From positions 224,001 through 288,000 of the forward strand of contig CAWCMR010000015.1 in the NCBI GenBank assembly GCA_963796685.1: 64,000 bases of DNA, in the 5' to 3' direction. The first letter of the stretch is position 1. Each line of letters starts with the position of its first letter. Below the pieces are notes generated by a model. It ran no database searches. It was not told the origin of the DNA and worked only from the letters and a program-made list of their open reading frames with translations. Source of the stretch: an uncultured delta proteobacterium (GTDB taxonomy: Bacteria; Myxococcota_A; Polyangia; Fen-1088). This document shows positions 24,823 through 41,991 of the stretch, one piece after another. A program made the position numbers and the translations under genes.

Positions 24823-26454
24823 CTACCCGGCTGTGTGCGGCAGGCGCCGCGGGCGCCGCTTCCGATCTCGGCGCCACCTTGCCGCGAGGAGTATGCCACT
24901 GCCCATCAGGGTGGCCAGGCTGATAGCGACGCCGGGGTAGAACCCGACGGGGACGAAGGTCGCCTCGACGCGATTTTGTCCGGCGGGCACCGCGACCAGA
25001 ACATTTCGGCCGTGGATGCGAGCAGCCAAGCCGGCGGTTTGCCATTCGAGCCTGCGACGGCTGGTGTGCAGGGGCAGAAGCAACTCGGAGGGCCGGGTCG
25101 CACGCACGTCCCAGACCAATCTATTCGGCGAGGTCTCCACCACCGAAACGGTTGCTTCGCCGGATTCGACCCGGGGCAACACGGGTGACCACGGACGGGT
25201 GAGCACGGGATCGCCAGCCCCGAAATCCTGCCACGGCATCGTCTCGAGGTAGCGCTCGCCGACCAACAGTCCGAGCAGCGCCACGAGCAGCGGCACGCGC
25301 AGCCGGCGCCACCGCGCGTGGCCGGCCAGCCAAGACTCCACGAGGGGAAGGCCGCGTGCGGCGACCAACCAACAGCAAAACACGAATACCGAAAGCAGCC
25401 GCGCGGGTACGCGTTGCCCGGCGATCGTCCACGACCTGAAACCAAGGTCGACGGCCAATGCGAGGGCCAGGGCTGCGACCAGCACCAGGATCGATTCGCG
25501 GGCGCGGCGGGCGGCCCACAGGCCCGCCAGGAGGAGCGCCGCTCCGATGAGCCCCACCGACGCGTCCCGCTCCCACGAAAACGGCACCAGCGATCCGCTG
25601 TAGCCATGGCCCGAGGCGAAGACAGGACCCCCGATGGTCAGGGCTCGCGCGAGATCGCTGGCGGCAATACCCTGGAAGAGCTGGGGCGGCTCGAAGGCGG
25701 CAAATCCATAGGCCGAGGGCAGCACGCGGGCGGCGGAGAGCCCGACCGCGAACAGCAGCGCCAGCGCAAAGACCCGTAGCGGGGCGAGGCTGCGTTCCTG
25801 CGCCGCCCACAGCAAGGCCCAGGCCGCCAGCAGCGCGACCAGCCAGATGGCCGGGTGATGCTGCCCGGCGATGATGAGCAGGGCGATGATCCCGCCGAGG
25901 CCCATGGTGCGGACGGTGTCGCAGCCCATGGACACGGCCCGCTTGAAAAGCAAGGCCGCGAACGGCCACAGGTACACGCCGAGCACCCAATGGTGACCCA
26001 CGATGAAATTCGAGACGGGAAAACCTTGCAGCCCGAAGATCGTAGCCAGCAGCGCAGCAGTCAAGGGCGTGGCGCCCAACCCGCGCGCCAGCAGATAGGC
26101 CCCGCAGATGCCCGCGGTGGCGTAGGCGACGAACAGGAGCTTCAAGTATGCCTGGGCGTGCATGAAATAGAGCAGCCACACCATCGGGTTCAGGATCGGC
26201 GACTCCGGCAACGAAGCGAGGCTATGGGTCCAGGTCTCGTACTGCTTGGGCAGATACAGTGGAAGGGCGCCGTGCTCGCGCAGCGACATGTGAATCCACT
26301 CGTAGAAATGGACGTGTTGTTGCCAATCCAAGGCATCGAAGGAGCCGCCGAAAAGCAGCTTGTGGTAGTACGCGACCAGCGCGCCGGCGACCAGGGCGCC
26401 GGCGAGCAGCGCGCCTCCGGCGCGCCGGAGCGCGCTCGTGAAGCGAACCGCCAT
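24823..26454 (-). CDS. Polytopic membrane protein, YfhO/GT-C glycosyltransferase-like
   Basis: First TM followed by an acidic loop (FDALDW...G.LPL), more than 10 TM helices, a periplasmic C-terminal domain (VPAG...V...F.P) and a final TM. Confidence 0.55.
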   Translation of the reverse strand: MAVRFTSALRRAGGALLAGALVAGALVAYYHKLLFGGSFDALDWQQHVHFYEWIHMSLREHGALPLYLPKQYETWTHSLASLPESPILNPMVWLLYFMHAQAYLKLLFVAYATAGICGAYLLARGLGATPLTAALLATIFGLQGFPVSNFIVGHHWVLGVYLWPFAALLFKRAVSMGCDTVRTMGLGGIIALLIIAGQHHPAIWLVALLAAWALLWAAQERSLAPLRVFALALLFAVGLSAARVLPSAYGFAAFEPPQLFQGIAASDLARALTIGGPVFASGHGYSGSLVPFSWERDASVGLIGAALLLAGLWAARRARESILVLVAALALALAVDLGFRSWTIAGQRVPARLLSVFVFCCWLVAARGLPLVESWLAGHARWRRLRVPLLVALLGLLVGERYLETMPWQDFGAGDPVLTRPWSPVLPRVESGEATVSVVETSPNRLVWDVRATRPSELLLPLHTSRRRLEWQTAGLAARIHGRNVLVAVPAGQNRVEATFVPVGFYPGVAISLATLMGSGILLAARWRRDRKRRPRRLPHTAG

Positions 26455-26741
26455 GTAAACGATCACGGCCCCCAGTATACATCGACACCTTCTCTGCTCT
26501 GCGTTAGGCGATGTCATGGTGAGAAGTTTGCTGTGAGAAGAGCGACGGCGAGCCCACTTTCGGCCGCGCATTTGAGCACTCGAGTGGGTGCAAGGAGGCC
26601 TGGACGAGACCAAGTCTATTCGCATAAGCCTTTGTAATCATAAGTTAAATTGGCAGCATTATGCGGTATTCAGACAGCTTGATGCCGAATTGGCCGATCT
26701 CGCGCCAGCCCTTGACTTGCCCCTCGGCCTCTGCAACTATG

Positions 26742-26776
26742 TCGTTACGGAATTCACAGCGTGACTTCATGCACAG
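26742..26776 (+). promoter_or_regulatory. Two tandem degenerate Rex operator-like sites
   Basis: TCGTTACggaaTTCACAG and GCGTGACttcaTGCACAG compared with the Rex consensus TTGTGAA-N4-TTCACAA. They lie between a TTGACT (26712) and the rex ATG. Confidence 0.5.
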
Positions 26777-26793
26777 CGGTTCGGGGGCGGATC

Positions 26794-27483
26794 ATGAACA
26801 AGCGAAAAATACCAAGCCGGTGCGTAGAGCGACTCAGCATCTACAGGCGCGCTTTGCTTCAGGATAGGCGTCTGCATGGTCCCAGCATCTATTCCCACGA
26901 GCTGGCGTTCGCCTGCCGCCTGACGGCGGCGCAGGTGCGCCGGGATCTGATGCTCATCGGGTACAGTGGCAGCCCGACCTCGGGCTACGAGGTCAAACGG
27001 TTGCTCTCGTCCATCGGCTCATTGCTCGATCCGCCGAACGTGCGCGAGGTGGCCATCGTGGGTATGGGGCACCTCGGCCGCTCCATCGCGGCCTACCTTG
27101 TGAATCGGTCGCCCAAGATTCAACTGACCGCGGCCTTCGACGTGAAACCCGACAAGATCGGCGCCACCTTCAGCGGCGTGCCGTGCTACTCGGTGCAGAA
27201 GCTGGCCGAGGTGGTTTCGTCGAGGGGCATCGTCATCGGCATCTTGACGGTGCCATCCGAGAACGCCCAGGAGATGGCCGAGCAACTGGTCCGGGCAGGC
27301 GTGACGGGCATCCTCAATTTCGCCCCGGCCTGTTTGCACATTCCCGAAAAGATACACGTCGAGAACATCGACATGACGGTGGCGTTGGAGAAGGTCGGCT
27401 TTTTTGCATGCGGCAGCCATAGAAGAAAAGGAAACATCGATGACCACAGCAGCACGAGCAACATCGACCAAACCGCTCCTTAA
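26794..27483 (+). CDS. rex: Redox-sensing transcriptional repressor Rex
   Basis: IP.....RL..Y.R.L, S.ELA......AQVRRDL..G..G....GY.V, GMGHLG Rossmann motif, GILNFAP. Confidence 0.93.
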   Translation: MNKRKIPSRCVERLSIYRRALLQDRRLHGPSIYSHELAFACRLTAAQVRRDLMLIGYSGSPTSGYEVKRLLSSIGSLLDPPNVREVAIVGMGHLGRSIAAYLVNRSPKIQLTAAFDVKPDKIGATFSGVPCYSVQKLAEVVSSRGIVIGILTVPSENAQEMAEQLVRAGVTGILNFAPACLHIPEKIHVENIDMTVALEKVGFFACGSHRRKGNIDDHSSTSNIDQTAP

Positions 27484-27934
27484 GGAGTTCGGGGCGGCCA
27501 AGCGAGACAGTCTGATCCCGATCCTGCAGAAGGCGCAGGAGGCCCATGGCTATCTGTCCGAAGAGGCGATCGCGGAGATCGGACGCCACCTGAAATTGCC
27601 CGCCAGCAAGGTCTACGGCGTCGCGACCTTCTACAACCAGTTTCGCTTCACGCCCAAGGGCAAGTACCACATCATGCTGTGTCGTGGGACCGCCTGCCAC
27701 GTGAAGGGCTCGCTCAAGTTGCTGGACGCGGTCACCCGCACGCTGAAGTTGCAGGCGGGACAGACCACGCGCGACGGGATGTTCAGCCTGGAAGTCGTGG
27801 CCTGCATGGGCGCCTGCGGCCTGGCCCCGGCCGTGAGCATCAACGGCGAGATGTACGCCAAAGTCACCCCCAAGAAGGTCGGCAAGATCATCGATGAGTG
27901 CCGCGCCAAGGAGCAGACCCATGCCCGTGCTTGA
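27440..27934 (+). CDS. hydC: HydC/NuoE-like [2Fe-2S] subunit
   Basis: LIPILQ.AQE..GYL, GVATFY.QF, CRGTAC, CMGAC. Confidence 0.9.
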   Translation: MTTAARATSTKPLLKEFGAAKRDSLIPILQKAQEAHGYLSEEAIAEIGRHLKLPASKVYGVATFYNQFRFTPKGKYHIMLCRGTACHVKGSLKLLDAVTRTLKLQAGQTTRDGMFSLEVVACMGACGLAPAVSINGEMYAKVTPKKVGKIIDECRAKEQTHARA

Positions 27935-30900
27935 AACACCCGCCAAGACAGCCTGCTGGACCGAACCCTCGCGTCCCACCGCCGAGCTTCTGACCAAACT
28001 GCCCGTGGGGCAGCTTTCGGCCAAGGCCGGTGGCGACATCAAAGAGCGCATCACGCTGCTCCGCCGCGAGAAAGTCGGCAAGCCCACCCTCTTCATCGGG
28101 ACCGGGACGTGTGGCCTCGGCGCCGGCGCGGCCAAGACCATGGAAGCGGCCAAGGCCTACCTCGCCGCCAAGAAGCTCGACGCGGACGTCATCGAGGTCG
28201 GCTGCCTCGGTATGTGCTCGGAAGAGCCCATGCTCGACGTGCAGTTGCCGGGCAAGGCGCGGGTCAGCTTCTGCCGCGTGACCGCCGACCGCGTGGCCTC
28301 GCTCCTCGACTCGGCGCTGGCCGGCAAGGTTGAGGGGGACCTCACGCTGGGGCAGTTCCGCAGCAAGACGGCCGAAGCCTGGCCGAATGTGCCTTTCCTC
28401 GACAAGCACCCGTTCTTCGCCCCACAACTGCGCTGGGTGCTCGCCAACTCGGGCATCATCGATCCCGGTAACATCGACGAGTACATCGCGCGCGGCGGTT
28501 ATGCAGCGATGGAAGCTGCCCTGCGCACGAAGAAGCCGGAAGAGGTGGGCGACATCGTCACCAAGGGCGGTCTGCGCGGCCGTGGCGGCGGTGGCTTCCC
28601 GACCGGCGTGAAGTGGAAGTTCGCGCGCGAGACCCAGGCCGACCAGAAGTACCTCATCTGCAACGCCGACGAGGGCGATCCCGGGGCGTTCATGGATCGC
28701 GCGGTGGTCGAGAGCGATCCGCACCGCCTGCTCGAAGGCATGGTCATCGCGGCCTATGCCATCGGCGCCAGCAAGGCGTACATCTACATTCGCGCCGAGT
28801 ATCCGCTGGCCATCAAGCGGCTCAAGGCCGCCATCCCCAAGGCGACCGAGTACGGGCTCCTCGGCAAGAACATCCTGGGCAGCGGTTTCGATCTCGAGAT
28901 CGTGCTCAAGATGGGCGCCGGAGCGTTCGTGTGCGGCGAAGAAACCGCGCTCATGCAGAGCATCGAGGGCAAGCGCGGCATGCCGCGCCCGCGCCCGCCG
29001 TTCCCGGCGGTGTCGGGTCTCTTCGGCAAGCCCACGGTCATCAACAACGTCGAGACCCTGGCCAGCGTGCCGGCCTTGATGGAGATGGGCGGCGATGCCT
29101 TCGCCGCGGTCGGCACCGCCAAGAGCAAGGGCACCAAGGTGTTCGCGCTCTCGGGCAAGGTCAACCGCACCGGCCTGGTCGAGGTGGCCATGGGCACCAC
29201 CATCCGCGAGATCGTCTTCGACATCGGCGGCGGCATCCCCAACGGCAAGAAGTGCAAGGCCGTGCAGATCGGCGGCCCGTCGGGCGGCTGCATCCCCGAG
29301 CCCAAGATGGACATCATCGTCGACTACGACGCCATCAAGACCGTCGGCGCCATCATGGGCTCCGGCGGCCTGGTCGTTCTGGACGAGAACACCTGCATGG
29401 TCGACCTGGCCAAGTTCTTCATGGAGTTCATCGGCAACGAGAGCTGCGGCAAGTGCATCCCCTGCCGGGAGGGCACCAAGCGGATGCTGGAGATCCTGCA
29501 GGCCATCACCCGGCCGCGGCGGCGCGAGAACGGCAGCGATGCCTTGCTGCGCTTCCAGGGCGTGATGCAGCTCAAGCAGCTGGCCGAAACCATCCGCATC
29601 AGCTCGCTGTGCGGCCTTGGCCAGACCGCGCCCAACCCGGTGCTCACCACCCTGCGCTGGTTCCGCGACGAGTACGAGGCGCACATCTTCGACCGCGCCT
29701 GCCCGGCCGGCACGTGCAAAGAGCTGGTCGGCGCTCCCTGCCAGACCGGCTGCCCGGTAGGCACCGAGGTGTGGCGCTATGTCGCGCACATCGCTCGCGG
29801 CGAAACCGAGCTGGCCTACCAGACCATCCGCGACGCCAATCCCTTCCCGTCGGTGTGCGCACGCGTGTGCAGCCACCCCTGCGAGGAGGTCTGTCGCTGC
29901 GGCGCCACGGGCGGCGAGCCCATCGCCGTGCGCGCGCTCAAGCGCTACGTGGTGGATCACATCGACCCCAGCTCGTACACGGTCACCATCAAGCCAGCCA
30001 CCGACAAGTCCAAGAAGGTGGCGGTCATCGGCGCCGGTCCGTCGGGCCTCACCACGGCCCACTACCTGTCGCAGAAGGGGCACAAGGTCACCGTGTTCGA
30101 GAAGGAAAACGAACCCGGCGGCATGCTCTTCAACGGCATTCCGGCGTACCGCCTTCCGCGCGAGGTCGTGCGCAAGGAGATCGCGTCGCTGCTCAACGCG
30201 AACATCGAGCTCAAGTGCAACATCGCGCTGGGTAAGGACGTGACGGTCGACGGACTCATGGCCAGCGGTTTCGACGCTGTCTACGTTTCCATCGGCGCGT
30301 ACAAGAGCCAGCGTCTTGGCATCGACGGCGAAGACGTGGCCGGCGTGATTCCGGGCATGGCCTTCCTCAAGGCCAATAACCTGCGCGACGAGAAGCTGGC
30401 CAAGGGCAACGTGGGCATCATCGGCGGCGGCAACACCGCCATGGATGCGGCCCGCGTGGCTTTGCGCCAGCCCGGCGTCAAGAAGGTCACCATCCTCTAT
30501 CGCCGCACGCGCGACGAGATGCCCGCCTTCGCCGAGGAGGTTCACGCCGCACTCGAAGAGGGCATCGAGCTCAAGGAGCTGGTCGCTCCGGTCTCGGTGT
30601 TGTCCAAGGACGGCAAGCTCACCGGCATGCACATGATTCGTAACGAGCTCGGCGCGCAGGACGCCAGCGGCCGGCCGCGACCGGTGCCGGTCAAGGGCAG
30701 CGAATTCGAGCTCGCTCTCGATACGCTGATCGTGGCCATCAGCGAGCAGCCGGAGGCCGAAAGCTTCCAAGGACTGCGCACCACCAAGTGGGGCACCATC
30801 GAAAACAACCCGGAGTCGTTGGCGGCCGGCAAGCCCGGCGTGTTCAGCGGTGGCGACGTGGCGCGCGGACCGACCGGCGTCATCGAGGCCATCGCCGACG

Positions 30901-31181
30901 GCAAGCGCGCGGCGTTGATGATCGACCGCTACCTCACCGGACGGCAGATGAAGATGATCAAGAAGGTGAAGTTGCCTTCGATCTACATCGAGCCGCTCCT
31001 GGACGCCGAGGACGACGAGGAATCCGAATCCGTCGCGGTCCGCGCGGTCGAAGAGATGGTGCCCGCCGCCAAGCGGCGCACGAGCTTCGTCGAAGTCGAA
31101 ATGGGTCTGTCGCTGCAGGCGGCGACGGATGAAGCAAGAAGGTGCCTGCGCTGTGACCTGGACTTCACCCGACCCCTTTGA
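27921..31181 (+). CDS. hydB: HydB/NuoF-like FMN subunit fused to a GltD/NfnB-like FAD/NADPH oxidoreductase module
   Basis: GLRGRGGGGFPTG, NADEGDPGAFMD, GGPSGG, SCGKCIPC..C; then PCQTGCP, CARVC..PCE..C, GAGPSG, GGGNTAMD..R, YRR, GGD, EARRCLRC. Confidence 0.9.
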   Translation: MPVLETPAKTACWTEPSRPTAELLTKLPVGQLSAKAGGDIKERITLLRREKVGKPTLFIGTGTCGLGAGAAKTMEAAKAYLAAKKLDADVIEVGCLGMCSEEPMLDVQLPGKARVSFCRVTADRVASLLDSALAGKVEGDLTLGQFRSKTAEAWPNVPFLDKHPFFAPQLRWVLANSGIIDPGNIDEYIARGGYAAMEAALRTKKPEEVGDIVTKGGLRGRGGGGFPTGVKWKFARETQADQKYLICNADEGDPGAFMDRAVVESDPHRLLEGMVIAAYAIGASKAYIYIRAEYPLAIKRLKAAIPKATEYGLLGKNILGSGFDLEIVLKMGAGAFVCGEETALMQSIEGKRGMPRPRPPFPAVSGLFGKPTVINNVETLASVPALMEMGGDAFAAVGTAKSKGTKVFALSGKVNRTGLVEVAMGTTIREIVFDIGGGIPNGKKCKAVQIGGPSGGCIPEPKMDIIVDYDAIKTVGAIMGSGGLVVLDENTCMVDLAKFFMEFIGNESCGKCIPCREGTKRMLEILQAITRPRRRENGSDALLRFQGVMQLKQLAETIRISSLCGLGQTAPNPVLTTLRWFRDEYEAHIFDRACPAGTCKELVGAPCQTGCPVGTEVWRYVAHIARGETELAYQTIRDANPFPSVCARVCSHPCEEVCRCGATGGEPIAVRALKRYVVDHIDPSSYTVTIKPATDKSKKVAVIGAGPSGLTTAHYLSQKGHKVTVFEKENEPGGMLFNGIPAYRLPREVVRKEIASLLNANIELKCNIALGKDVTVDGLMASGFDAVYVSIGAYKSQRLGIDGEDVAGVIPGMAFLKANNLRDEKLAKGNVGIIGGGNTAMDAARVALRQPGVKKVTILYRRTRDEMPAFAEEVHAALEEGIELKELVAPVSVLSKDGKLTGMHMIRNELGAQDASGRPRPVPVKGSEFELALDTLIVAISEQPEAESFQGLRTTKWGTIENNPESLAAGKPGVFSGGDVARGPTGVIEAIADGKRAALMIDRYLTGRQMKMIKKVKLPSIYIEPLLDAEDDEESESVAVRAVEEMVPAAKRRTSFVEVEMGLSLQAATDEARRCLRCDLDFTRPL

Positions 31182-31209
31182 TGGTCGCGGCTTTTAGAAA
31201 GAAACAAAC

Positions 31210-32931
31210 ATGCTGACCATCGAAATCAACGGAAAGAAACTGGAAGCCAACAAGGGCGAGACCATCTTGGCGGTCGCGCGCAGAAGCGGCATCGAGATAC
31301 CGACCCTGTGCCATATGGAAGGCCTCATGCCGAGCGGCTCGTGCCGCATGTGCGTGGTCGACGTCGAGGGCTTCCCCAATCTGCTCACCGCGTGCTCGTA
31401 CCCGGTGGCCGACGGGATGAAGGTGAAGACCCATTCGCCCAGAGCCCTCGAAACCCGCCGGACGATCGTGCAGCTCCTCCTGGCCAATCACCCGGACGAC
31501 TGCCTCTACTGCGCGCGCAGCTCGAACTGCGACTTGCAGGGGCTGGCGCGCGACCTCGGCGTCTCGCGCCGCGAGTACCACGGGTTCCGTGCCAAGAAGA
31601 GCCTGGACGTGTCGGGGGCCTCGCTGGTGCGCGATCCGGAGAAGTGCATCCTGTGCGGCAAGTGCGTGCGGGTGTGCGAGGAGATCCAGTCGGTGTCGGC
31701 CATCGACTTCGTGGGCCGCGGCAGCAAGACGGTGATCGGAACCGCGTTCTCGCGCGGGCTGGCCACTTCGAGCTGCATCAATTGCGGTCAGTGCGTGGTG
31801 GTGTGCCCGACCGGCGCGCTGGTCGAGCGATCCTATGTCACCGAGGTTCTGGGCGCCTTGCGCGACCCGGACAAGTTCGTGGTCGTGCAACACGCGCCCG
31901 CCGTGTCGGTCACCCTGGCCGAAGAGTTCGGCGTGCCGCCGGGAACGGATTGCGACGGCCAGATGGTGGCCGCCCTTCGCCGCGCCGGGTTCAAGCGGGT
32001 GTTCGACACCAGCTTCAGCGCCGACCTCACCATCATGGAGGAGGCCTCCGAGTTGGTGCACCGGATCAAGACCGGCGGAAAGCTGCCGATGTTCACCAGT
32101 TGTTCGCCAGGCTGGATCAAGTTCATGGAGACGTTCTACCCGGACATGCTCGGGCACTTGTCGACGTGCAAGAGCCCGCAGCAGATGCTGGGGGCCATCA
32201 CCAAGAGCTACTTCGCTCAGCGCGAAGGCATCGATCCGACCAAGATCGTCAGCGTGTCCATCATGCCGTGCACGGCCAAGAAGTTCGAGGCGGGCCGGCC
32301 CGAGATGACCCAGGCCTACAACCCCGATGTGGACTACGTCCTCACCACGCGCGAGGCGGCTCAGCTTCTGCGCATGAGCGGCGTGGGCATGACCGGCATC
32401 GAACCGGAATCGGCCGACACGCCCTTCGGCGAGCGCTCGACGGCGGGCAAGATCTTCGGCGCCTCGGGTGGCGTGATGGAGGCGGCGGTTCGCACGGCGC
32501 ACTGGATGATCACGGGCAAAGAGTTGCCCGGTCTCGACGTCCAGCCGCTGCGCGGGCTCGATGGCGCCAAGGAGCTGAAGGCCAACATCGGCGGCATCGA
32601 GGTCGGCGCCGCGGTGGTCAGCGGTCTCGGCAACGCACGCGCCCTGGTCGAGCAGATCCGCGCGGGTCGCAAAGACCTTCACTTCATCGAGGTCATGACC
32701 TGTCCCGGCGGCTGCATCAACGGCGGCGGTCAGCCGCTGCACTCCGACAAACAGGCGGTCCTCGCGCGCATGAAGAAGCTGTACAACCTGGACAAGGACG
32801 CCACCTTGCGCGTCAGCCACGACAACAAGTCGGTCAAGCGCCTGTACGAGGAATTCCTGGGTGCGCCCCTCGGTGAAAAGAGCCACCATCTGCTGCACAC
32901 GCATTACTCGGCGAGAGAGGTCTTGGTGTAA
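31210..32931 (+). CDS. hydA: [FeFe]-hydrogenase catalytic subunit (group A, multimeric type)
   Basis: H-cluster motifs TSCSPGW, MPCTAKKFE and EVMTCPGGCINGGG; N-terminal [2Fe-2S], His-ligated [4Fe-4S] (HPDDCLYC) and 2x[4Fe-4S]; C-terminal LLHTHY. Confidence 0.95.
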   Translation: MLTIEINGKKLEANKGETILAVARRSGIEIPTLCHMEGLMPSGSCRMCVVDVEGFPNLLTACSYPVADGMKVKTHSPRALETRRTIVQLLLANHPDDCLYCARSSNCDLQGLARDLGVSRREYHGFRAKKSLDVSGASLVRDPEKCILCGKCVRVCEEIQSVSAIDFVGRGSKTVIGTAFSRGLATSSCINCGQCVVVCPTGALVERSYVTEVLGALRDPDKFVVVQHAPAVSVTLAEEFGVPPGTDCDGQMVAALRRAGFKRVFDTSFSADLTIMEEASELVHRIKTGGKLPMFTSCSPGWIKFMETFYPDMLGHLSTCKSPQQMLGAITKSYFAQREGIDPTKIVSVSIMPCTAKKFEAGRPEMTQAYNPDVDYVLTTREAAQLLRMSGVGMTGIEPESADTPFGERSTAGKIFGASGGVMEAAVRTAHWMITGKELPGLDVQPLRGLDGAKELKANIGGIEVGAAVVSGLGNARALVEQIRAGRKDLHFIEVMTCPGGCINGGGQPLHSDKQAVLARMKKLYNLDKDATLRVSHDNKSVKRLYEEFLGAPLGEKSHHLLHTHYSAREVLV

Positions 32932-32933
32932 CC

Positions 32934-33350
32934 ATGAGCGAAACAAAGACGATCCTGATTGTTGACGACGACCTCGACATCCTCGAGCAATACACCCTGC
33001 TCCTCAAGGCGGACGGCCACACGGTCGTGCAAGCCAGCAGCCTGGCCGAGGCCGAGGAGACCATCCTGACGGTTCGCCCCGATCTGGCCATCTTGGACCT
33101 GATGATGGACGAAAAGGACGCGGGCTTCGTGCTGTGCAACCAGCTCAAGCGCTTGTATGCCAACCTGCCGGTCATCATCGTGTCCAACGTCACGCCCATC
33201 ACCGGGCTCGACTTCAGGCCGCGCAACCAGGAAGAGCACTCATGGGTGCGCGCGGATGCGATTCTGAACAAGCCCATCGTCGCCGAGCGTTTGCGCGGCG
33301 AAATTGCCCGGCTGCTCAATCAAGGGCAGGCCGCGGCTGCCGTACACTAG
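32934..33350 (+). CDS. Stand-alone response regulator receiver protein
   Basis: ILIVDDD, ILDLMM (phosphoacceptor Asp), IIVS, NKP; no output domain. Confidence 0.9.
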   Translation: MSETKTILIVDDDLDILEQYTLLLKADGHTVVQASSLAEAEETILTVRPDLAILDLMMDEKDAGFVLCNQLKRLYANLPVIIVSNVTPITGLDFRPRNQEEHSWVRADAILNKPIVAERLRGEIARLLNQGQAAAAVH

Positions 33351-33405
33351 GGCGTGGAGAAAGCACGGCGGGTGAAGTAACCGGCATGCAAAGATGGGAG
33401 CTTCC

Positions 33406-35451
33406 ATGACCATCGCGCAGCCGAAGTGCTTCACCAAGACCGTGAAAGATCGCTGCCACGTCTGCTACACCTGCGTACGCGGTTGCCCGGCCAAGGCCAT
33501 CCGGATCCTGGACCGCCAGGCCGAGATCGTCGCCGATCGCTGCATCGGCTGCGGCAACTGCGTGCGGGTGTGCGGGCGGGGCGCCAAGAAGGTCGTCAAC
33601 ACTGTTCCCGACGTCGAAACCCTGCTCGCCGGGGGCGGGCGTGTGGCGGCCCTGGTGGCCCCCAGCTTCGCGGCCGAGTTCTACGATGTGTGCGAGGCGC
33701 AGAATCCCCAGGTGCTGGTGGGGATGCTGCGCAAGCTCGGCTTCGATCTCGTGACGGAAGTGGCGTTCGGCGCCGACCTGGTCGCGCATGCCTACCGCAA
33801 GCTCCTCGATTCGCGTCCAGCCGGGACGCGCTACATCGCCACCACGTGCCCCGCGGTGGTCGGCTACGTCGAGCGCTACTGGCCCGAGCTGGTTGGCCAT
33901 TTGGCGCCGCTGGTGTCCCCCATGGTGGCCATGGCGCGCGTCCTGCGTGCCATGCATGGGCCGGATCTGCGCACGGTCTTCATCGGGCCTTGCCTGGCCA
34001 AGAAGGTCGAGGCCAGCATGCCCGAGCTCGCTGGCGAGGTGGACGCCGTGATCACCTTCGCCGAGTTGCGCACCATGTTCCTGTCCCATGCCGTGGAGGC
34101 GGCCTCGACGCCGGGAAGCGATTTCGATCCGCCTCACGCCGGGACCGGCACCTTGTTCCCGCTCAACCGCGGGCTGTTCCAGGCCGCCGGCATCAGCGAG
34201 GATTTGGCCAGCACCGAGGCCGTGGCGGCCCACGGCGGGCCAGGGTCGTTCGTGAACGCCATCGAGGAGTTCGCGGGTGGCGACGTCGACTTCGGCCTGG
34301 TCGAGGTGCTGTGCTGCAACGGCTGCGTGTCGGGGCCGGGCATGACCTCGCACGAGAAGACCTTCCGCCGCCGTGCCCGGGTGGCCAAGTACGCCAACGA
34401 GAGCAAACGCACGCGCGACGCGACCAAGTGGTACGACGAGATGGATCGATTTTCCACCGTCGACCTCGCGCGCAAGTTCATTCCCTTCGATCAGCGCACC
34501 GCCATGCCGTCCGAGGAGGAAATTCGCCACATCCTGCGCGGCATGGGCAAGGAGAGCGAGGCCGACGAGCTCGACTGCAAGGCGTGCGGGTATTCGACCT
34601 GCCGCGAGCACGCCATCGCGATCTATCGCGGACTGGCCGAAACGCAGATGTGCCTGCCTTACGTCATCGATCGCTTCGACCACACCGTACGCCAGCTCTC
34701 CGAATCGAACCGACAGCTCGAAACCACGCAAGAGCAGCTCATGCACTCGGAGCGCCTGGCCAGCATGGGGCAGCTCGCCGCCGGCGTGGCCCACGAGCTC
34801 AACAATCCGCTCGGCGTGGTGTTGCTCTACGCGCACCTCTTGCGTGACGAGGCGAGCGAGGACTCGGGCATGCGCAAGGAGCTGACCTTGATCAGCGATC
34901 AGGCCACGCGGTGCAAGCGCATCGTGTCGGATCTGCTCGACTTCGCGCGCGAGAACAAGCTGCTGCTCGAACAGATCAGCGTCGAAGAGCTGATCAAGCG
35001 CAGTCTGGCCGGCCTGCCGTTGCCGCAGGAGATCAACATCGTCCTCGAGCTGGGCCACGTCCACCCCGAGTGCGAGGTCGATCCCGCGCAGATGATCCAG
35101 GTGCTGACCAACCTCTACAGCAATGCCTTTGCCGCCATGCCGAACGGCGGTACTCTGACCATCGCCACGCACGAGGAGGGCGAGCGCCTGATCATCAGCG
35201 TGCACGATACGGGCACGGGCATTCCGGCCGAGAACATGAAGCACATCTTCCAGCCCTTCTTCACCACCAAGCAAATCGGCAAGGGCACGGGGCTTGGCCT
35301 GGCGGTGGTATACGGAATCGTGAAAATGCACCGGGGCGACATCGTGCTCGAATCCAATGCCGATGCGGCGCGCGGTCCCACCTGGACCCGTTTCAAGGTG
35401 TCGATTCCGCACAATCAGGTCATGCAGGGCGCCGAGACGAGGATTGGCTGA
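33406..35451 (+). CDS. Sensory [FeFe]-hydrogenase-like domain fused to a histidine kinase (group C type)
   Basis: 2x[4Fe-4S] (CHVCYTC...CP, CIGCGNC); variant H-cluster motifs TTCPAV, GPCLAKK and EVLCCNGC..GPG; FeS motif DCKACGYSTC; HisKA AHELNNPL; HATPase N/G1/F/G2 boxes. Confidence 0.9.
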   Translation: MTIAQPKCFTKTVKDRCHVCYTCVRGCPAKAIRILDRQAEIVADRCIGCGNCVRVCGRGAKKVVNTVPDVETLLAGGGRVAALVAPSFAAEFYDVCEAQNPQVLVGMLRKLGFDLVTEVAFGADLVAHAYRKLLDSRPAGTRYIATTCPAVVGYVERYWPELVGHLAPLVSPMVAMARVLRAMHGPDLRTVFIGPCLAKKVEASMPELAGEVDAVITFAELRTMFLSHAVEAASTPGSDFDPPHAGTGTLFPLNRGLFQAAGISEDLASTEAVAAHGGPGSFVNAIEEFAGGDVDFGLVEVLCCNGCVSGPGMTSHEKTFRRRARVAKYANESKRTRDATKWYDEMDRFSTVDLARKFIPFDQRTAMPSEEEIRHILRGMGKESEADELDCKACGYSTCREHAIAIYRGLAETQMCLPYVIDRFDHTVRQLSESNRQLETTQEQLMHSERLASMGQLAAGVAHELNNPLGVVLLYAHLLRDEASEDSGMRKELTLISDQATRCKRIVSDLLDFARENKLLLEQISVEELIKRSLAGLPLPQEINIVLELGHVHPECEVDPAQMIQVLTNLYSNAFAAMPNGGTLTIATHEEGERLIISVHDTGTGIPAENMKHIFQPFFTTKQIGKGTGLGLAVVYGIVKMHRGDIVLESNADAARGPTWTRFKVSIPHNQVMQGAETRIG

Positions 35452-36614
35452 TGGGAGAGCGACTACGGGTTCTGGTTGTCGATGACGAAGAGGGTATTCG
35501 TCTCGGCGTGGCTAGGGTTCTCGAACGCTTCGTCGCCAGCTTTCCCGACATCGCGGCCGAGATCAGCTACGACATCGAGTCCGCAGCAAGCGGCGAGGAC
35601 GCGGTGGAACGCCTGCGCGATTCGCCGCCCGACATCCTGCTGCTCGATCTGAAATTGCCGGGCATCGGCGGCCTCGACGTCCTGCGCGAGGCGCGCAATC
35701 TGGAGCCACCCGTCCTGACCATCATGATCACGGCCTACGCCTCGGTGACCACCGCGGTCGAGGCGACGCGCGGCGGGACTTTCGATTTTCTGCCCAAGCC
35801 GTTCACGCCGAACGAAATCAAGGCTTGCGTCCGCCGCGCCACACGCGACCTGGTCTTGAGTCGGCAGGCGAAAAAATTGGCGGCCGAGCAGCGACGCACG
35901 CGCTTCGAGCTCATCCGGGTCCTGGTGCACGAGCTGAAGGCGCCGCTCGGCGCCGTCGAGGGCTATTTGGCCTCGATTCTGGATGGCGTGGTCAACGACG
36001 AGGAGACGCGTCGCCATGTGGTGACCCGATCCATCGCGCGCATCCAGGGCATGCGCCAGCTCATCCTCGACCTGCTCGACGTGACCCGCCTGGAGGCCGG
36101 GATGAAGGCGCGCGATTTCTCGACCGTGTCGCTGACCGACCTGGCGCGCGAGTGCGTGGATGCCCTGCGCCCGCAGGCCGAGGCCAAGCATCTGACCTTG
36201 GAGATCGTCGGTGCCCCCGATCTCGAGCTGGTCGCCGTGCGCGCCGAGCTGGAAATCGTGCTCAACAACCTGCTGACCAACGCCATCAAATACAACCGCG
36301 AGGGCGGCAGCGTGCGCGTGTCGCTGGGGCGGCACGAGGATGTCTTCGTGATCGCCGTGCACGACACCGGCTTCGGGCTTTCGCGCGACGACGCTGCCAA
36401 GCTGTTCAACGACTTCGTGCGCATCAAGAACGTGAAGACCCGCGGCATCGAGGGCTCGGGCCTCGGCCTGGCGACCGTCAAGCGCATCGCGGGCCTGTAC
36501 CACGGCGACGCCACGGTAGACTCGCAGCTCGACCAAGGAAGCACTTTCACCGTCACCCTCAAGGCAGCTGTGCCCGCAAAGGCACTGCTGCCGGAAAAGC
36601 AAGCGCAAGCATGA
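35451..36614 (+). CDS. Hybrid response regulator / sensor histidine kinase (REC-HisKA-HATPase)
   Basis: VLVVDDE, LLDLKLP, ITAY, PKPF; VHELKAPL, NLLTNAIKY, DTG.G, GSGLGL. Confidence 0.92.
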   Translation: MGERLRVLVVDDEEGIRLGVARVLERFVASFPDIAAEISYDIESAASGEDAVERLRDSPPDILLLDLKLPGIGGLDVLREARNLEPPVLTIMITAYASVTTAVEATRGGTFDFLPKPFTPNEIKACVRRATRDLVLSRQAKKLAAEQRRTRFELIRVLVHELKAPLGAVEGYLASILDGVVNDEETRRHVVTRSIARIQGMRQLILDLLDVTRLEAGMKARDFSTVSLTDLARECVDALRPQAEAKHLTLEIVGAPDLELVAVRAELEIVLNNLLTNAIKYNREGGSVRVSLGRHEDVFVIAVHDTGFGLSRDDAAKLFNDFVRIKNVKTRGIEGSGLGLATVKRIAGLYHGDATVDSQLDQGSTFTVTLKAAVPAKALLPEKQAQA

Positions 36615-36874
36615 AAGATCACCGCATCGTAGGTGTCCACATCACCGACCGCGCCACCCACGCCGGCGAGGTCCAAACCATCCTGAGCAAATATGGCAAG
36701 AACATCCGCACCCGGCTCGGCCTGCACGAGGTCAGCGAGGACTCGGCAGCGCCGAATGGCCTCATCATCCTGGAAGCCGTGGGAACCAACCAGGAAATCG
36801 ACGCCCTCTCCGACGAGCTGCGCCACCTCAAAGGCGTGCAAGTGCAGAGCATGTTTTTTTCACATCCTGAGTAG
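36611..36874 (+). CDS. TM1266-like iron-only hydrogenase system protein
   Basis: I.G..I.DR......VQ.ILS.YG..IRTRLGLH...GLI.LE; about 87 aa, located next to hydG. Confidence 0.8.
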   Translation: MKDHRIVGVHITDRATHAGEVQTILSKYGKNIRTRLGLHEVSEDSAAPNGLIILEAVGTNQEIDALSDELRHLKGVQVQSMFFSHPE

Positions 36875-36877
36875 ATT

Positions 36878-36981
36878 TTTCACCACAGAGGGCACAGAGA
36901 GCGCGGAGGTCGGAATGGAAGAATTTCGGATTCAAGAGCCGAAAGCCTCCTACTCTCGGCCTCGGTGCCTTTGCGGTGAAA
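36878..36981. repeat. REP-like palindromic element, copy 1
   Basis: TTTCACCACAGAGGGCACAGAG... pairs imperfectly with ...CTCGGTGCCTTTGCGGTGAAA. Confidence 0.7.
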
Positions 36982-37062
36982 TTCACGAGAACATTCGCCT
37001 AGAGCACCATGGGATTGCCTGGCGCTGCCGGGCCGCCGTGCAGAACGCATACAAGCCATTTT

Positions 37063-37170
37063 TTAACCACAGAGAACACAGAGGTCCGGAGAGTGAAGGG
37101 TTTTCCGGATCTCGATCCGAACCCTTCATTCCTCATCCGTCTCCGTGTTCTCTGTGTCCTCTGTGGTTAG
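37063..37170. repeat. REP-like palindromic element, copy 2
   Basis: TAACCACAGAGAACACAGAG... pairs with ...CTCTGTGTCCTCTGTGGTTA; internal TGAAGGGTT/AACCCTTCA stem. Confidence 0.75.
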
Positions 37171-37307
37171 AATCCGGAAATTGCCCGGGTTTCAACCCGT
37201 TCGGTGCTCTAGTGTCCCTGCCTTGCGAGGAACTCCAGGTCCTCGCGGTAAACCTGGCAGGGCAATGCAGTCTGCGCTAGTCTATCGAGGAAAGAAAGGA
37301 TTTTTCG

Positions 37308-38732
37308 ATGTTGCCCCTATCCAAAACGCTGAGCCAGCATGCCGAGGATTTTATCGACGACGCCCATTTGGAAAGGCTGGCCGGCGCCGCGGATCTGGTC
37401 GATGTGGGGCGCCTGCGCGGCGTCATCGCCAAGGCGCTCGACAAGCAGGCTTTGACCGTCGAGGAAACCGCGGTCCTTCTGCACGCCCGCGATCCGGAGC
37501 TGCGCGAGGAAGTGTTCGCGGCGGCGCGCGATCTCAAACAGCGCGTGTACGGCAACCGCATCGTCCTCTTCGCGCCGCTCTACCTCGGCAATCTGTGCGT
37601 GAACAACTGCGCCTACTGCGGCTTTCAGAGCAACAACAAGGACATGGTCCGACGTACGCTGGGCATGGAGGAGATCCGCCAGCAGGTGGTGGCCATGGAA
37701 AATCAGGGCCACAAGCGCCTCATCGTGGTGTTCGGCGAGCACCCGCGCTACGACGCCGACTTCATCGCCAGTTGCATCCGCGATATCTACGACGTGACGA
37801 GCGGGCACGGCGAGATCCGGCGCGCCAACGTGAACGCGGCCCCGTTCGACCACGCGGGTTTCAAGACCATCAAGGCCGCCGGCATCGGCACGTATCAGAT
37901 CTTCATGGAGACGTACCATCACAAGACCTACGCGCGCGTCCATCCCCACGGCACGCCGAAGGGCGACTACCTGTGGCGGCTCGATGCCCTGAGCCGCGCT
38001 TTCGAGGTGGGGCAGGACGACCTCGGCATCGGCGCGCTCTTCGGTCTGGCGAATTGGCGCTTCGATGTGCTCGGCCTGGTCAGCCATGCGGTCTTCCTGA
38101 AAGAGCGCTACGGCTGCGGGCCGCACACCATCAGCTTTCCGCGTTTGCGGCCCGCCTCTGGCGTGGATCTGGGGAACGAGAACCTGGTCGGCGACGAGGA
38201 CTTCAAATTCCTGATCGCGGTGCTGCGCCTGGCTGTGCCTTACACCGGGCTCATCCTCACCGCGCGCGAGACCGCCGATCTGCGCAAGAGCGCCATGGAA
38301 TTCGGCGTGTCCCAGATCGACGCCGGCTCGTGCGTCGAGCTGGGGGGCTACACCGAACAGACCTGCGGTCAGCGCATGGAGCGCGAGCAGTTCACGCTCG
38401 GCGACATGCGCCCGCTCGATACCGTCATTCGCGAGCTCACCGAGCAGGGGCACGTGCCCAGCTTCTGCACCGCCTGCTACCGCCTGGGCCGCACCGGCGA
38501 GCACTTCATGGAGTTCGCCATCCCCGGCTTCATCAAGCGCTTCTGCACGCCCAATGCCCTGACCACGTTCATGGAATACCTCGTCGACTACGCGACGCCG
38601 GAAACCGCCAAGTCCGGCTTGGCGCAGATTCAGGTCGAGCTCGACAAGCTGGAGGACTCGCCCATGAAGCAAACGTTGATCGAGCGGTTGGCCAAGGTGC
38701 GGGAGACCAACGAGCGGGACATGGTCTTCTAA
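37308..38732 (+). CDS. hydG: [FeFe]-hydrogenase H-cluster maturase HydG
   Basis: YGNRIVLFAPLY..N.CVNNCAYCGF radical SAM motif; GPHTISFPR; C-terminal PSFCTACYR.GRTG..FM...C.PNA. Confidence 0.95.
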   Translation: MLPLSKTLSQHAEDFIDDAHLERLAGAADLVDVGRLRGVIAKALDKQALTVEETAVLLHARDPELREEVFAAARDLKQRVYGNRIVLFAPLYLGNLCVNNCAYCGFQSNNKDMVRRTLGMEEIRQQVVAMENQGHKRLIVVFGEHPRYDADFIASCIRDIYDVTSGHGEIRRANVNAAPFDHAGFKTIKAAGIGTYQIFMETYHHKTYARVHPHGTPKGDYLWRLDALSRAFEVGQDDLGIGALFGLANWRFDVLGLVSHAVFLKERYGCGPHTISFPRLRPASGVDLGNENLVGDEDFKFLIAVLRLAVPYTGLILTARETADLRKSAMEFGVSQIDAGSCVELGGYTEQTCGQRMEREQFTLGDMRPLDTVIRELTEQGHVPSFCTACYRLGRTGEHFMEFAIPGFIKRFCTPNALTTFMEYLVDYATPETAKSGLAQIQVELDKLEDSPMKQTLIERLAKVRETNERDMVF

Positions 38733-38733
38733 G

Positions 38734-39891
38734 TCACAGCAGTTTGTCGTTCCACAGCTCGTCGAGGAATGTTCGCCAGGGGAGGCAACGGATGGAGCCT
38801 TGCTTGGTTTCGATGGGATCTTCGGAAACGAGAAAGAACTGGCGCAAGATTTTCTCTTCGGCGAGCGCGGTCAGCCCGCGGAGGTCGGAGGCTCCAACAT
38901 GCCGGGTGGCCTTGGTTTCGACAGCGAGGTGATCGCCGACGACGAAGTCGACCTCGTGGTCGGCGGTGGAGCGCCAATAGCGGAGCTCTTCATGACGGCG
39001 TCGGTAGCCGAGATAGGCCCGTAGCTCCATGGCGATCCATTGCTCGAAGCTGCGGCCGTAGAGGTCGGAATTGCGGTCGAGAGTGCGCGTTCCGCTGAGC
39101 GCGTGCGCGACGCCGGTGTCGAAGAAGTAGAACTTGGCGGTAGCAATGGCTTTCCGCTTCTTCGACTTGGTCCAGGCGGGAAGCAGAAACCCCACCAGGG
39201 TGTCTTCCAGGAGGAAATAGTGCTCGCGCACCGTGGCCGCGGGCAGACCGGCATCGTTGCCGATCTTGGCGAAGTTCAGCATCTGGCCGTTGGTCGAGGC
39301 CGCCGTGGTCAGGAATCGGGTGAAGGCCGGAAGACGGCGTACCAGGCCTTCTGCCTGGATCTCCTCGTGCAAGTAGGTTCGCACGTAGGCGTGCAACTCC
39401 TCCTCGGGCTCATCGCTCAGCACGACCGGAGGGAGGCCTCCATAGCGAAGAAATCTCGGCAGGTCGAACTTGGGGATCTCCGCGTAGGTCAAGGGATAGA
39501 GGTTCGCCGTCCAGGCGCGTCCACCAAGGAGGTTGGCGTGGCCGTGCCTGAGCTTGCGGGCGCTGCTCCCCGTGAGAACGAAGCGCATGCCACGCTCCTC
39601 GATCAACCGGTGGACTTCGTCGAGAATGTGCGGAATCTTCTGAACCTCGTCGATCACGATGGGCGCGGTCGCTGCCCGGCGGTCCGCATCGATCATCGCT
39701 TCAAGGAGGTTGGGGCTGGCGGAGAGCCGGAGAAAGAGATCGGAACGTAGGAGGTCGATGACGACCGCCTGGCCGCCGAGCTGTTGGCGGACGAGGAAGC
39801 TCTTCCCCGTCATGCGCGGTCCGAGGAGGAAGAAGGACTTCTTCTTGACCAGCGCGGCGAGATCCAGGGCCCGTCTGATGTTGGATATCAT
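38734..39891 (-). CDS. AAA ATPase (AAA_14) with DUF4143 domain
   Basis: GPRMTGKS, IDEVQK, LTGSSA, YGGLP, KFYFFDTG, EVDFV...ETK. Confidence 0.88.
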   Translation of the reverse strand: MISNIRRALDLAALVKKKSFFLLGPRMTGKSFLVRQQLGGQAVVIDLLRSDLFLRLSASPNLLEAMIDADRRAATAPIVIDEVQKIPHILDEVHRLIEERGMRFVLTGSSARKLRHGHANLLGGRAWTANLYPLTYAEIPKFDLPRFLRYGGLPPVVLSDEPEEELHAYVRTYLHEEIQAEGLVRRLPAFTRFLTTAASTNGQMLNFAKIGNDAGLPAATVREHYFLLEDTLVGFLLPAWTKSKKRKAIATAKFYFFDTGVAHALSGTRTLDRNSDLYGRSFEQWIAMELRAYLGYRRRHEELRYWRSTADHEVDFVVGDHLAVETKATRHVGASDLRGLTALAEEKILRQFFLVSEDPIETKQGSIRCLPWRTFLDELWNDKLL

Positions 39892-41016: not shown

Positions 41017-41991
41017 ATGAGCTCCCCGTCGATCCTTCGTATCGAGCAGGATGCGGTGGCCTTCTTTCTCGACTTGCAAGACAAGATGGTCGCCGGATTG
41101 CAGGCGCTCGATGGCCGCCCTTTTCGCGAGGACGCTTGGCAGCGGCCGGGCGGCGGGGGAGGGCGGTCGCGCGTGCTTGCGGACGGTGGCTTGTTCGAGA
41201 AGGCGGGGGTGAATTTCTCGGACGTGCACGGCAGCATGCGACCGGAGCTGGCGCGCAGCTTGCCGGGTGACGGCGCCGAGTTTCGCGCCACCGGGATCTC
41301 GCTGGTGTTGCATCCGTGCAGCCCGCGCGTGCCCACGGTGCACGCCAATCTGCGCTTCATCAGACGGGGAAGCGCGGCCTGGTTCGGCGGCGGTACGGAT
41401 CTCACGCCCTACTACGTGGTGGCCGAGGACGCGCGGCTGTTTCATCGCAGTCTCGAGGCGATCTGCGCTCGCCACGAGCCCGGCCTGTACCCGCGTTTCA
41501 AGGGCTGGTGCGATCGGTATTTCTTTCTTCCCCACCGCAATGAGCCGCGCGGGGTCGGAGGCATCTTCTTCGACTATCTCGGCGCGGGCGCGGAGGCTGC
41601 CGCCGGCGAACCGCTGCCGCCCTCGACCACCGGGCTCGAAACCGATGTGGCGAAGGTGTTCGCCTTCGTGCGCGACCTCGGGGAGCACATGCTGGATGCA
41701 TACACCACCATTGTCGGGCGCCGCCGCGAGGAGACCTGGGGCGAGCGCGAGCGAGAATGGCAGCTGCTCCGGCGCGGGCGCTACGTCGAATTCAACCTGG
41801 TCTACGACCGGGGAACCCTGTTCGGCCTGCGCACCGACGGCCGCACCGAATCGATTCTGATGTCGTTGCCCCCCGAGGTGAAATGGCGATACGGCGCCGT
41901 TCCCGAGGCCGGCTCTCCCGAAGCGCGTTCGCTGGAGGCCATCTGTGCGCGGCGCGACTGGGCGCGGGAAGAACGGGAAGAAGTCGAATAG
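41017..41991 (+). CDS. hemF: Oxygen-dependent coproporphyrinogen III oxidase
   Basis: [64 protein letters not shown]. Confidence 0.95.

Follow-up and report, generated by a model that had tools for sequence, protein, structure and literature searches.

An [FeFe]-hydrogenase operon with its own Rex and a putative H2-sensing histidine kinase in a Polyangia genome

Introduction

Among anaerobes, Clostridia and Thermotogae have hyd genes in their Rex regulons. These are the genes of multimeric [FeFe]-hydrogenases such as the one in the Polyangia locus analysed here. Which fermentations can proceed in anoxic soils and peat depends on the partial pressure of H2, and how a fermenter measures H2 is known by inference alone, from HydS proteins of the PAS type. 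Genetic work on a PAS-type homologue, hfsB, supports a regulatory role of such proteins, and its authors raised Rex as a possible mediator, as stated in the accessible part of PMC5707799. A second kind of candidate sensor is listed in HydDB as putative class C1, in which the [FeFe] domain is "histidine kinase-linked" (PMC5037454). Kinase-type sensors beside A3 hydrogenases, together with a fusion of HydB to a GltD-like module, were described in Hydrogenedentota (PMC11406978) and in Kiritimatiellia, where the identical HydB-GltD fusion occurred in 163 genomes (bioRxiv 10.64898/2026.10.06.756941).

In this study, we analysed a stretch of 64,000 nucleotides, called the window below, from the metagenome-assembled genome (MAG) of an uncultured bacterium. 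It corresponds to C15:224001-288000, where C15 is a contig of 468 kb. The window contains a nine-gene locus that begins with rex, continues with hydC, a hydB::gltD fusion, hydA and genes for a single-domain REC protein, a hydrogenase-like histidine kinase, a REC-histidine kinase and a TM1266-like protein, and ends with hydG. Our results suggested that the locus probably originated as one transcription unit for a multimeric [FeFe]-hydrogenase, soluble and NAD(P)H-linked, with dedicated regulators, namely Rex and a putative H2 sensor.

Results

Organization of the operon

Gene families were assigned with Pfam and NCBIfam profiles, and the curated cut-offs were exceeded for rex, hydA and hydG. 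Start codons were refined. The first-pass annotation, made from the sequence alone, had described nine co-directional genes, and all of them were confirmed by Pfam and NCBIfam on the + strand at 26794-38732 (Table 1). The first eight overlapped or were separated by at most 43 nt, also as described. In the case of the TM1266-like protein, the score was below the TIGR03959 equivalog cut-off (38.2 bits versus 60.8).

The gap of 433 nt before hydG was a dispersed repeat, with 66 blastn matches in the genome. A 20-mer taken from it had 69 genome copies at up to 3 substitutions. The repeat was palindromic, with cores like CACCACAGAGGGCACAGAG, and approximately 50-69 copies were present in the genome. 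One contig from an RNA library, derived from a relative, did not contain the repeat and joined 36864 directly to 37285. Based on the repeat copies and this contig, the gap was read as an insertion into a once-continuous operon. An open reading frame (ORF) at 36693-37280 was rejected as spurious.

Metatranscriptome contigs from three libraries of three studies, which were 90-95% identical to the window, spanned hydC to the start of the sensor gene. Two of these contigs bridged the junction of the NuoF and GltD parts of hydB (29589-30625 and 29636-30505). Another bridged the end of hydA, the REC gene and the start of the sensor gene (32770-33456), with the limit that a contig across genes is no proof of a single transcript. 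No Rfam family was matched in 26000-39500, and a scan for sigma-70 promoters gave 0 promoter-like sites. Terminator-like sites numbered 8, compared with 8.9 in shuffles. A sigma-54 promoter upstream was considered and dropped, with its spacing off by one and the stretch not conserved (this region was judged by eye).

Features of the hydrogenase-like kinase

The residues of the putative sensor were compared across 18 aligned sequences, the most distant of which had 42% identity. C152, C200, C308 and C311 were invariant, together with K203 and E206. The motif Cx2Cx4Cx16C (C395, C398, C403 and C420) was also invariant, and so was the kinase core, with H467 and the N, G1 and G2 boxes. T151, G198 and L306 occupied the positions of C299, M353 and M497 in CpI. 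According to the part of PMC10055695 available to us, these positions are altered in sensory enzymes, and Gly, Ser or Thr is found at the M353 site. The window sensor showed the features of group C, namely the H-cluster cysteines, the three altered positions and a fused kinase. By the class description, it is a candidate member of the putative class C1 of HydDB.

Structure prediction was performed with AlphaFold2. The model had a predicted local distance difference test score (pLDDT) of 77.5, and the blocks of the H-domain reached 80-95. A helix extended from C420 toward the dimerization and histidine phosphotransfer (DHp) helices, and residues 428-464 were of low confidence. When the model was used in Foldseek, the first ~430 residues matched [FeFe] hydrogenases, and the kinase part matched ZraS. 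The fused hydrogenase-kinase form was not found among the solved structures searched.

Instead of H2, the Fe-S clusters of the kinase could report another signal, for example O2, CO, Fe-S status or how reduced ferredoxin or NAD(P)H is, or the protein could be a structural "T" subunit of the hydrogenase complex. In addition to the H-cluster site, the sensor contains three accessory [4Fe-4S] sites, and the organism meets O2, as indicated by its oxidases and by a flavodiiron protein gene near hydF. In addition, such neighbours are named "T subunit" in PMC11406978, where H-cluster binding was doubted in part of group C. However, the invariance of the four H-cluster cysteines, K203 and E206 would be hard to explain without a [2Fe] subcluster. 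The maturase genes hydE, hydG and hydF commonly lay 3' of the kinases in relatives, and the H-cluster of TmHydS, a characterised relative, is normal, as reported in the accessible text of PMC10055695. We regard a signal other than H2, or a structural role, as unlikely, and H2 remains the predicted ligand.

Two proteins with REC domains accompany the sensor. In the single-domain REC protein, D55, K113 and W104 were invariant in 34 orthologues. Members of this family (34 RECs) have an unusual conserved insertion, which comes after the usual fourth strand and before the conserved Lys. The insertion contains W104 and may be a partner-binding surface. Past the REC-kinase gene of relatives, 38 ORFs were inspected, and they encoded maturases, a few extra single-domain RECs or unrelated proteins.

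Rex and its operator

The Rex protein of the window possessed both the N-terminal DNA-binding domain and the Rossmann NADH domain. The operator consensus TTGTGAA-N4-TTCACAA was scanned, and mismatches were compared with 200 shuffles. In 36 related loci, the region 40-80 bp upstream of rex had a box with at most 2 mismatches in 21 cases, 3 mismatches in 8 and at least 4 in 7. The boxes with at most 2 mismatches were reached by 0-1 of the 200 shuffles. A paralogous rex-led operon on contig C3 of the same genome had the box CTGTGAATATATTCACAA with 1 mismatch. It was the sole site with at most 1 mismatch genome-wide, where 0.13 were expected. Since the whole genome had this single near-canonical box, Rex looks to act locally.

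In the window, the spacing between the box TCGTTACGGAATTCACAG and rex equalled that of the canonical boxes in relatives. The block containing it was conserved in six same-genus sequences, together with the TTGACT hexamer 24 nt upstream of the box. A search of the window with up to 3 mismatches gave an unrelated site at 55029 alone. Between rex and hydC, no Rex box that beat the shuffles was found in any locus. These results suggested that Rex control is well supported for this cassette as a kind, and that Rex control of the window copy is plausible but weaker.

Two further observations concerned rex in relatives. In the same-genus genome G215, rex was lost at the orthologous locus (L115, G215:C4, ~28944-29099), and a better box with 2 mismatches, TCGTGAAGGAATTCACAG, stood directly before the hyd genes. 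A third rex paralogue, approximately 71% identical at the DNA level, was located elsewhere in four genus members.

Composition of the enzyme

HydA carried the H-cluster motifs TSCSPGW, MPCTAKKFE and EVMTCPGGCINGGGQP, which match those of active bifurcating enzymes. The best match in the PDB was HydA1 of Acetobacterium woodii (7q4v_A), which has the same P1 motif TSCSPGW. HydB consisted of two modules. Residues ~66-616 formed a NuoF-like FMN/NAD(H) module, with PDB matches to NfnB (9n5u_B), HydB (7q4v_B) and also NiFe-HydB and StnB chains, and the HydB-chain matches had E values of 1e-161 to 1e-185. Residues ~607-1090 formed a 2x[4Fe-4S]-FAD-NAD(P)H module like those of GltD, NfnA and StnC. For residues 614-1088, the best PDB matches were 9bov_A, NfnA (9n5u_A) and StnC (8oh5_C). 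The motifs GRGGGGFPTG, VIGAGPSG and GGGNTAMD were located in HydB. The second nucleotide motif, GGGNTA, corresponds to GxGxxA, which is taken as indicating NADP(H) in the portion of PMC7483475 that was available.

The usual C-terminal ferredoxin-type dicluster (B3/B4) was absent from the window HydB, and Fer4_20 and Pyr_redox_2 were present instead. The HydB of the C3 paralogue retained the dicluster as Fer4_21. The C-terminal 2x[4Fe-4S] domain of HydB is held to be necessary for bifurcation to ferredoxin (PMC11406978). The architecture of the window HydB was that of "sub-type I BfuB" in the same study, in which a DPD_II and FAD/NAD(P) module replaces the B3/B4 clusters and the mechanism was called open. 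Because one defining feature, the C-terminal dicluster of HydB, is lacking, we did not class the window enzyme as canonical A3.

The catalytic direction is presumed to be H2 evolution during fermentation. A full-length PFOR is encoded in the genome and was counted as a source of reductant for it. Alternatively, the enzyme might serve mainly in H2 uptake, yielding NADH and NADPH from H2 made by neighbours or by the other hydrogenases of the organism, and the sensor would switch it on in the presence of H2, in the manner of Ralstonia HoxBC-HoxJ-HoxA. The GltD-like module is similar to those on the NADPH side of NfnABC and StnABC, and GltD-linked A2 enzymes have been raised as possible H2-to-NAD(P) couplers (HydDB, PMC5037454). 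The second, ferredoxin-type HydABC of the genome, which has its own sensor, could serve H2 evolution, and TmHydS is biased toward H2 oxidation in the accessible part of PMC11216029. However, de-repression of Rex at high NADH better fits the disposal of reductant than its production. Large subunits of uptake-type [NiFe]-hydrogenases are also encoded in the genome, and sequence gives no data on direction. Uptake as the main function of this enzyme seemed quite unlikely to us, and we retained H2 evolution as the expected direction.

Distribution and conserved gene order

The kinase-fused sensor was searched for by a pattern scan with one genome per species. At least 601 stretches were obtained, and the sensor was confirmed in at least 581 species genomes. 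It is widespread in uncultured Planctomycetota, Myxococcota, Hydrogenedentota and others. All of the top 120 database homologues of the window sensor carried PF02906, HisKA and HATPase, except for one truncated protein (P0064).

For gene order, the window proteins were placed on the best 80 sensor loci. The 80 loci were all from MAGs and came from many phyla. The nearest relatives of the sensor were from Planctomycetota, Myxococcota, Hydrogenedentota (loci L039, L043, L073 and L081), Lentisphaerota and others. The first-pass annotation had called such loci typical of Firmicutes, Thermotogae, Bacteroidetes and Spirochaetes, and this list did not fit the kinase-fused form.

The neighbours of the sensor were strongly conserved. 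hydA was directly 5' of the sensor in 54 of the 67 loci with room for it, and a single REC adjoined it in 61 of 71. A REC-kinase was found within the next two genes 3' in 63 of 69 loci, and as the third gene in 4 of the 6 misses. rex was upstream of hydC in 35 of 49 loci (30/39 with ordinary HydB and 5/10 with the GltD fusion). The order rex-hydC-hydB::gltD-hydA-REC-sensor-REC-kinase-(hydE)-hydG recurred in MAGs labelled Polyangia, Myxococcales, Holophagaceae, Planctomycetes and Lentisphaerae. In many relatives, the kinases were followed by hydE, hydG, an aspartase-like lyase gene and hydF. The proposal that Rex and a hydrogenase-like kinase exert dual control was supported by this cross-phylum synteny and by the Rex operators, with H2 as the predicted signal of the kinase. 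The locus had also been put forward as the best candidate in the window for an undescribed system. This did not hold, as the same gene order was present in MAGs of several phyla and both the sensor type and the HydB fusion were already described. The locus is a clean and well-conserved member of a catalogued kind, and it is not unique to the window.

Two arrangements in the group of L094, L095, L096 and L100 were recorded. A MAG labelled Candidatus Kuenenia stuttgartiensis had a full rex-hydCBA-sensor-REC-REC-kinase-hydE-hydG cassette. Thermoleophilia MAGs had a GltD-type cassette that was directly followed by a second REC-hydCBA set.

Inheritance and integrity of the assembly

We monitored the occurrence of the sensor in a class sample of 401 genomes, including G000. 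Matches were counted when they covered the hydrogenase domain and the best E value was at most 1e-100. By this measure, 47 of the 401 genomes had a match. The raw tally of 300 sensor matches in the 401 genomes was too high because it included matches to the kinase part only. Two unpublished genomes, G332 and G364, gave rows of this kind and counted toward the denominator alone.

A recent foreign island, or a chimera of assembly or binning, would be uninformative on the physiology of Polyangia. A sensor tree was built with FastTree from 79 rows, and three loci with short matches were left out. The window sensor fell in a fully supported clade of six, all of which had a GltD-type HydB, and the clade mixed the labels Myxococcota, Fibrobacterota and Acidobacteriota. 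Such hydrogenase clusters are mobile among phyla (PMC11406978). In addition, the estimated contamination of the MAG was 6.5%, and the upstream flank of the locus was not conserved within the genus. However, the composition of the locus was ordinary for the genome. Its GC content was 0.645-0.658, compared with 0.647 ± 0.022 for the genome, and its tetranucleotide distance was in the 44th-68th percentile of 2397 genome windows. The sensor was carried by 9 of 10 other same-genus genomes, and at least 7 had both paralogues among the matches listed. In 3 of 5 genus members, panE and hemF came after the locus and shared its contig, and hydF was on the same 468-kb contig as the window locus. With this composition and synteny, and with the promoter block conserved in the genus, no sign of a chimeric mis-assembly was found, and a foreign or chimeric origin is very improbable. 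Taken together, the tree, the presence across the genus, the synteny and the ordinary composition fit a history in which whole cassettes were exchanged between phyla long ago and the locus was then inherited vertically within the genus.

A gene for an AAA_14/DUF4143 ATPase lay directly after hydG. Five same-genus genomes lacked it at this position, and a local insertion is therefore probable.

Maturases and other hydrogenase loci

The island had been called self-contained. This was not the case for the maturases, as hydF (536 bits) lay after an aspartate ammonia-lyase gene on this contig, at a distance of 62 kb upstream, and hydE was on contig C5. In this assembly, hydE was divided between two reading frames. 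It was intact in 5/5 same-genus genomes, and an assembly indel is for this reason the likelier explanation.

The second operon, on contig C3, had the order rex-REC-hydC-hydB-hydA-sensor-REC-kinase with an ordinary HydB, and it was flanked by GH43/CBM6 and GH8 genes. A third [FeFe] locus on the same contig consisted of a hydC::hydB fusion and hydA. The sensors of the window and of the C3 operon were 42% identical and lay far apart in the tree, which indicated that they are not recent duplicates.

Source genome

The MAG comprised 7.3 Mb in 26 contigs, with an estimated completeness of 88.6%. A myxobacterium-like host had been expected, and this was borne out by RpoB, which was 96% and 87% identical to NCBI proteins named "Polyangia bacterium". 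The nearest named homologue of the sensor, at 80% identity, was likewise labelled "Polyangia bacterium". Habitat terms had only small word shares and the RNA-library matches were relatives at 90-95%, so the habitat of the organism itself was left unassigned. The O2-dependent hemF and egtB were present in the window, as claimed before, and at least 4 heme-copper oxidase genes were encoded in the genome. The picture is that of a genus of soil and peat Polyangia in which oxidases occur together with two NAD(P)H-linked [FeFe] hydrogenases, each under separate regulation. This points to a facultatively fermentative lifestyle in a class known mainly from aerobes.

Outside the window, a gene for a [NiFe]-hydrogenase large subunit lay 7.7-12.4 kb downstream, a region that includes an operator variant. 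The latter was a 2-mismatch copy of the window-type variant, 3.5 kb upstream of the [NiFe] gene, and it may be due to chance. In the mevalonate-pathway cluster of the window, the HMG-CoA reductase ORF covered only profile positions 162-368 of 368. Its N-terminal part may lie in another frame, which would make this a further possible assembly indel.

Table 1. Positions of the locus and of other features named in the text (window coordinates, unless a contig is given)
Feature	Position	Strand	Details
Promoter-operator region	26712..26759	+	TTGACT -35-like hexamer 26712-26717; degenerate Rex box TCGTTACGGAATTCACAG 26742-26759
rex	26794..27483	+	NF003995 202 bits (cut-off 126); PF06971 and PF02629; frame and ATG start checked
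hydC, NuoE-like [2Fe-2S] subunit	27440..27934	+	PF01257 176 bits; GGA-rich stretch upstream of ATG 27440
hydB fusion, 1095 aa	27894..31181	+	NuoF FMN and 4Fe-4S domains (PF01512, PF10589), then Fer4_20 and Pyr_redox_2
hydA	31210..32931	+	NF040763 "group A6" 824 bits (cut-off 765); M3 type with small-subunit domain
Single-domain REC, 138 aa	32934..33350	+	PF00072
Putative H2 sensor, 685 aa	33394..35451	+	2x[4Fe-4S], Fe_hyd_lg_C, PF04060, HisKA, HATPase
REC-histidine kinase	35454..36614	+	REC, HisKA, HATPase; D65 and H159 present
TM1266-like protein, 87 aa	36611..36874	+	NF052672 CPF_0552 family 93 bits (cut-off 85); PF21699 28 bits (cut-off 27)
Inserted dispersed repeat (like repetitive extragenic palindromes, REP, or miniature inverted-repeat transposable elements, MITE)	36875..37307	.	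Repeat matches across genome
hydG, radical-SAM H-cluster maturase	37308..38732	+	TIGR03955 476.7 bits (cut-off 312.15)
AAA_14/DUF4143 ATPase gene	38734-39891	-	
egtD/egtB (ergothioneine genes)	2943-5215	-	
hemF (oxygen-dependent coproporphyrinogen oxidase)	41017-41991	+	
Mevalonate-pathway cluster	47123-50422	-	
HMG-CoA reductase ORF	47123-47752	-	
hydF	C15:162508-163680		
hydE	C5:309031-310024 (L025 5981-7112)		Two reading frames; frameshift at about 309705-309743
Second rex-led operon	C3:70631-80098 (L022 6631-16098)		
Third [FeFe] locus	C3:89575-93704 (L023 5575-9704)		
Copy of operator variant	C15:295692		
[NiFe]-hydrogenase large-subunit gene	C15:299196-300428		

Discussion

We consider it probable that the locus was built as one transcription unit, since split before hydG by the repeat insertion, and that it encodes a soluble NAD(P)H-linked hydrogenase with its own regulators. 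In this enzyme, HydA would carry the H-cluster, and the FMN/NAD(H) core would be made up of HydC and the NuoF part of HydB. At its GltD-like end, HydB would add a site for FAD and NADP(H) where ordinary bifurcating enzymes bear ferredoxin-facing clusters. Rex would repress the promoter by binding the box at 26742-26759, and it would be released on rising NADH/NAD+. The hydrogenase-like kinase would bind an H-cluster with sensory-type substitutions, and H2 would shift the redox state of its clusters. The helix from C420 to H467 would transmit this change to the autokinase activity. The phosphoryl group would then move from the sensor to the REC domain of the REC-kinase, which is its most constant neighbour, and from there to the single REC. 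Both the sensing of H2 and this order of phosphotransfer are predictions made from motifs and gene neighbourhood. The output would most likely be a protein-protein effect or a distal regulator, and the candidates are Rex, the enzyme and a distal regulator. It was not assigned to a DNA-binding regulator because the module contains none.

Several points weigh against this reading. The Rex box of the window, in which one half-site was perfect, differed from the consensus by 4 mismatches, and 8 of the 200 shuffles matched it as well. The case for NADP(H) as the predicted substrate of the GltD module consists of the GxGxxA motif and the likeness to NfnA and StnC. In the literature searched, no kinase-fused [FeFe] sensor was reported to bind or sense H2 and no biochemical study of this form was found, and H-cluster motifs were hard to find in the group C1 set of PMC11406978. 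A DNA-binding response regulator was absent from the module and from the 38 ORFs downstream of the REC-kinase in relatives. The RNA-library contigs came from relatives and not from this strain, and such libraries can hold DNA. In addition, a genuine frameshift in hydE would make maturation of both the enzyme and the sensor impossible.

A bolder proposal joins three claims, and we hold their joint truth to be doubtful. They are a ferredoxin-free confurcation of NADH and NADPH to H2, an integrated circuit of four regulators, and a choice between an NADP-type (C15) and a ferredoxin-type (C3) enzyme. If they were true, NADP(H) at the fused GltD module would replace ferredoxin as the second partner. 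Rex, the hydrogenase-kinase, the REC-kinase and the single REC would form one circuit, and the H2 signal would end on Rex or on the enzyme through the single REC, because no other DNA-binding protein is present in the module. Each HydABC, the ferredoxin-type on C3 and the NADP-type on C15, would have a private set of sensors. Apart from this proposal, the kinase-fused form may be the most tractable entry to H2 sensing, since it is common and its autophosphorylation is simple to assay.

We compared the locus with known systems. No characterised operon of this kind was found. In searches mostly outside subscription journals, we found no paper in which Rex, a kinase-fused HydS, REC and a REC-kinase were considered as a single unit, and no paper on the [FeFe] hydrogenases of Polyangia. 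PMC12735889 contained nothing on Polyangia hydrogenases.

In the case of the HoxBC-HoxJ-HoxA system of Ralstonia eutropha (HydDB group 2b), the shared principle is a low-turnover hydrogenase that acts through a histidine kinase to control hydrogenase genes. The system differs in its unrelated [NiFe] site, in its separate sensor and kinase and in the DNA-binding response regulator HoxA, of which the window module encodes no counterpart. This comparison was drawn from the accessible part of PMC5707799. The Rex regulons of anaerobes share the Rex family and the operator TTGTGAA-N4-TTCACAA, which was found in relatives and in the C3 paralogue. In contrast to these regulons, the rex of the window belongs to the hyd operon as its leading gene.

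The Bfu-type transhydrogenases NfnABC and StnABC have a HydBC-like FMN core and a GltD-like NADPH module in common with the window enzyme. Their GltD module is on a NuoG-like subunit without an H-cluster, and their B subunit keeps the ferredoxin-side clusters. In the window, however, the GltD module is on HydB, where it replaces those clusters, and a true HydA is present.

The sensors of HydDB group C, with HydS of Thermotoga maritima, share the H-cluster cysteines, the altered positions of CpI C299, M353 and M497, the extra four-Cys cluster motif after the H-domain and a multimeric hydABC alongside. The window protein differs from the PAS-type HydS of T. maritima in its directly fused HisKA and HATPase domains, whereas HydS has a PAS domain with Ser/Thr kinase or phosphatase partners.

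A likeness in gene content was also seen to the clusters of Hydrogenedentota in PMC11406978, a study whose main text has 0 mentions of Rex or response regulators. The window HydB shares the architecture of BfuABC sub-type I, in which BfuB has a DPD_II and a FAD/NAD(P) domain. The window sensor resembles the "T" subunit of sub-type V, which has a histidine-kinase domain, and it likewise stands next to an A3-type hydA. Compared with these clusters, the window combines both features in one Polyangia operon and adds rex, a REC gene and a REC-kinase gene.

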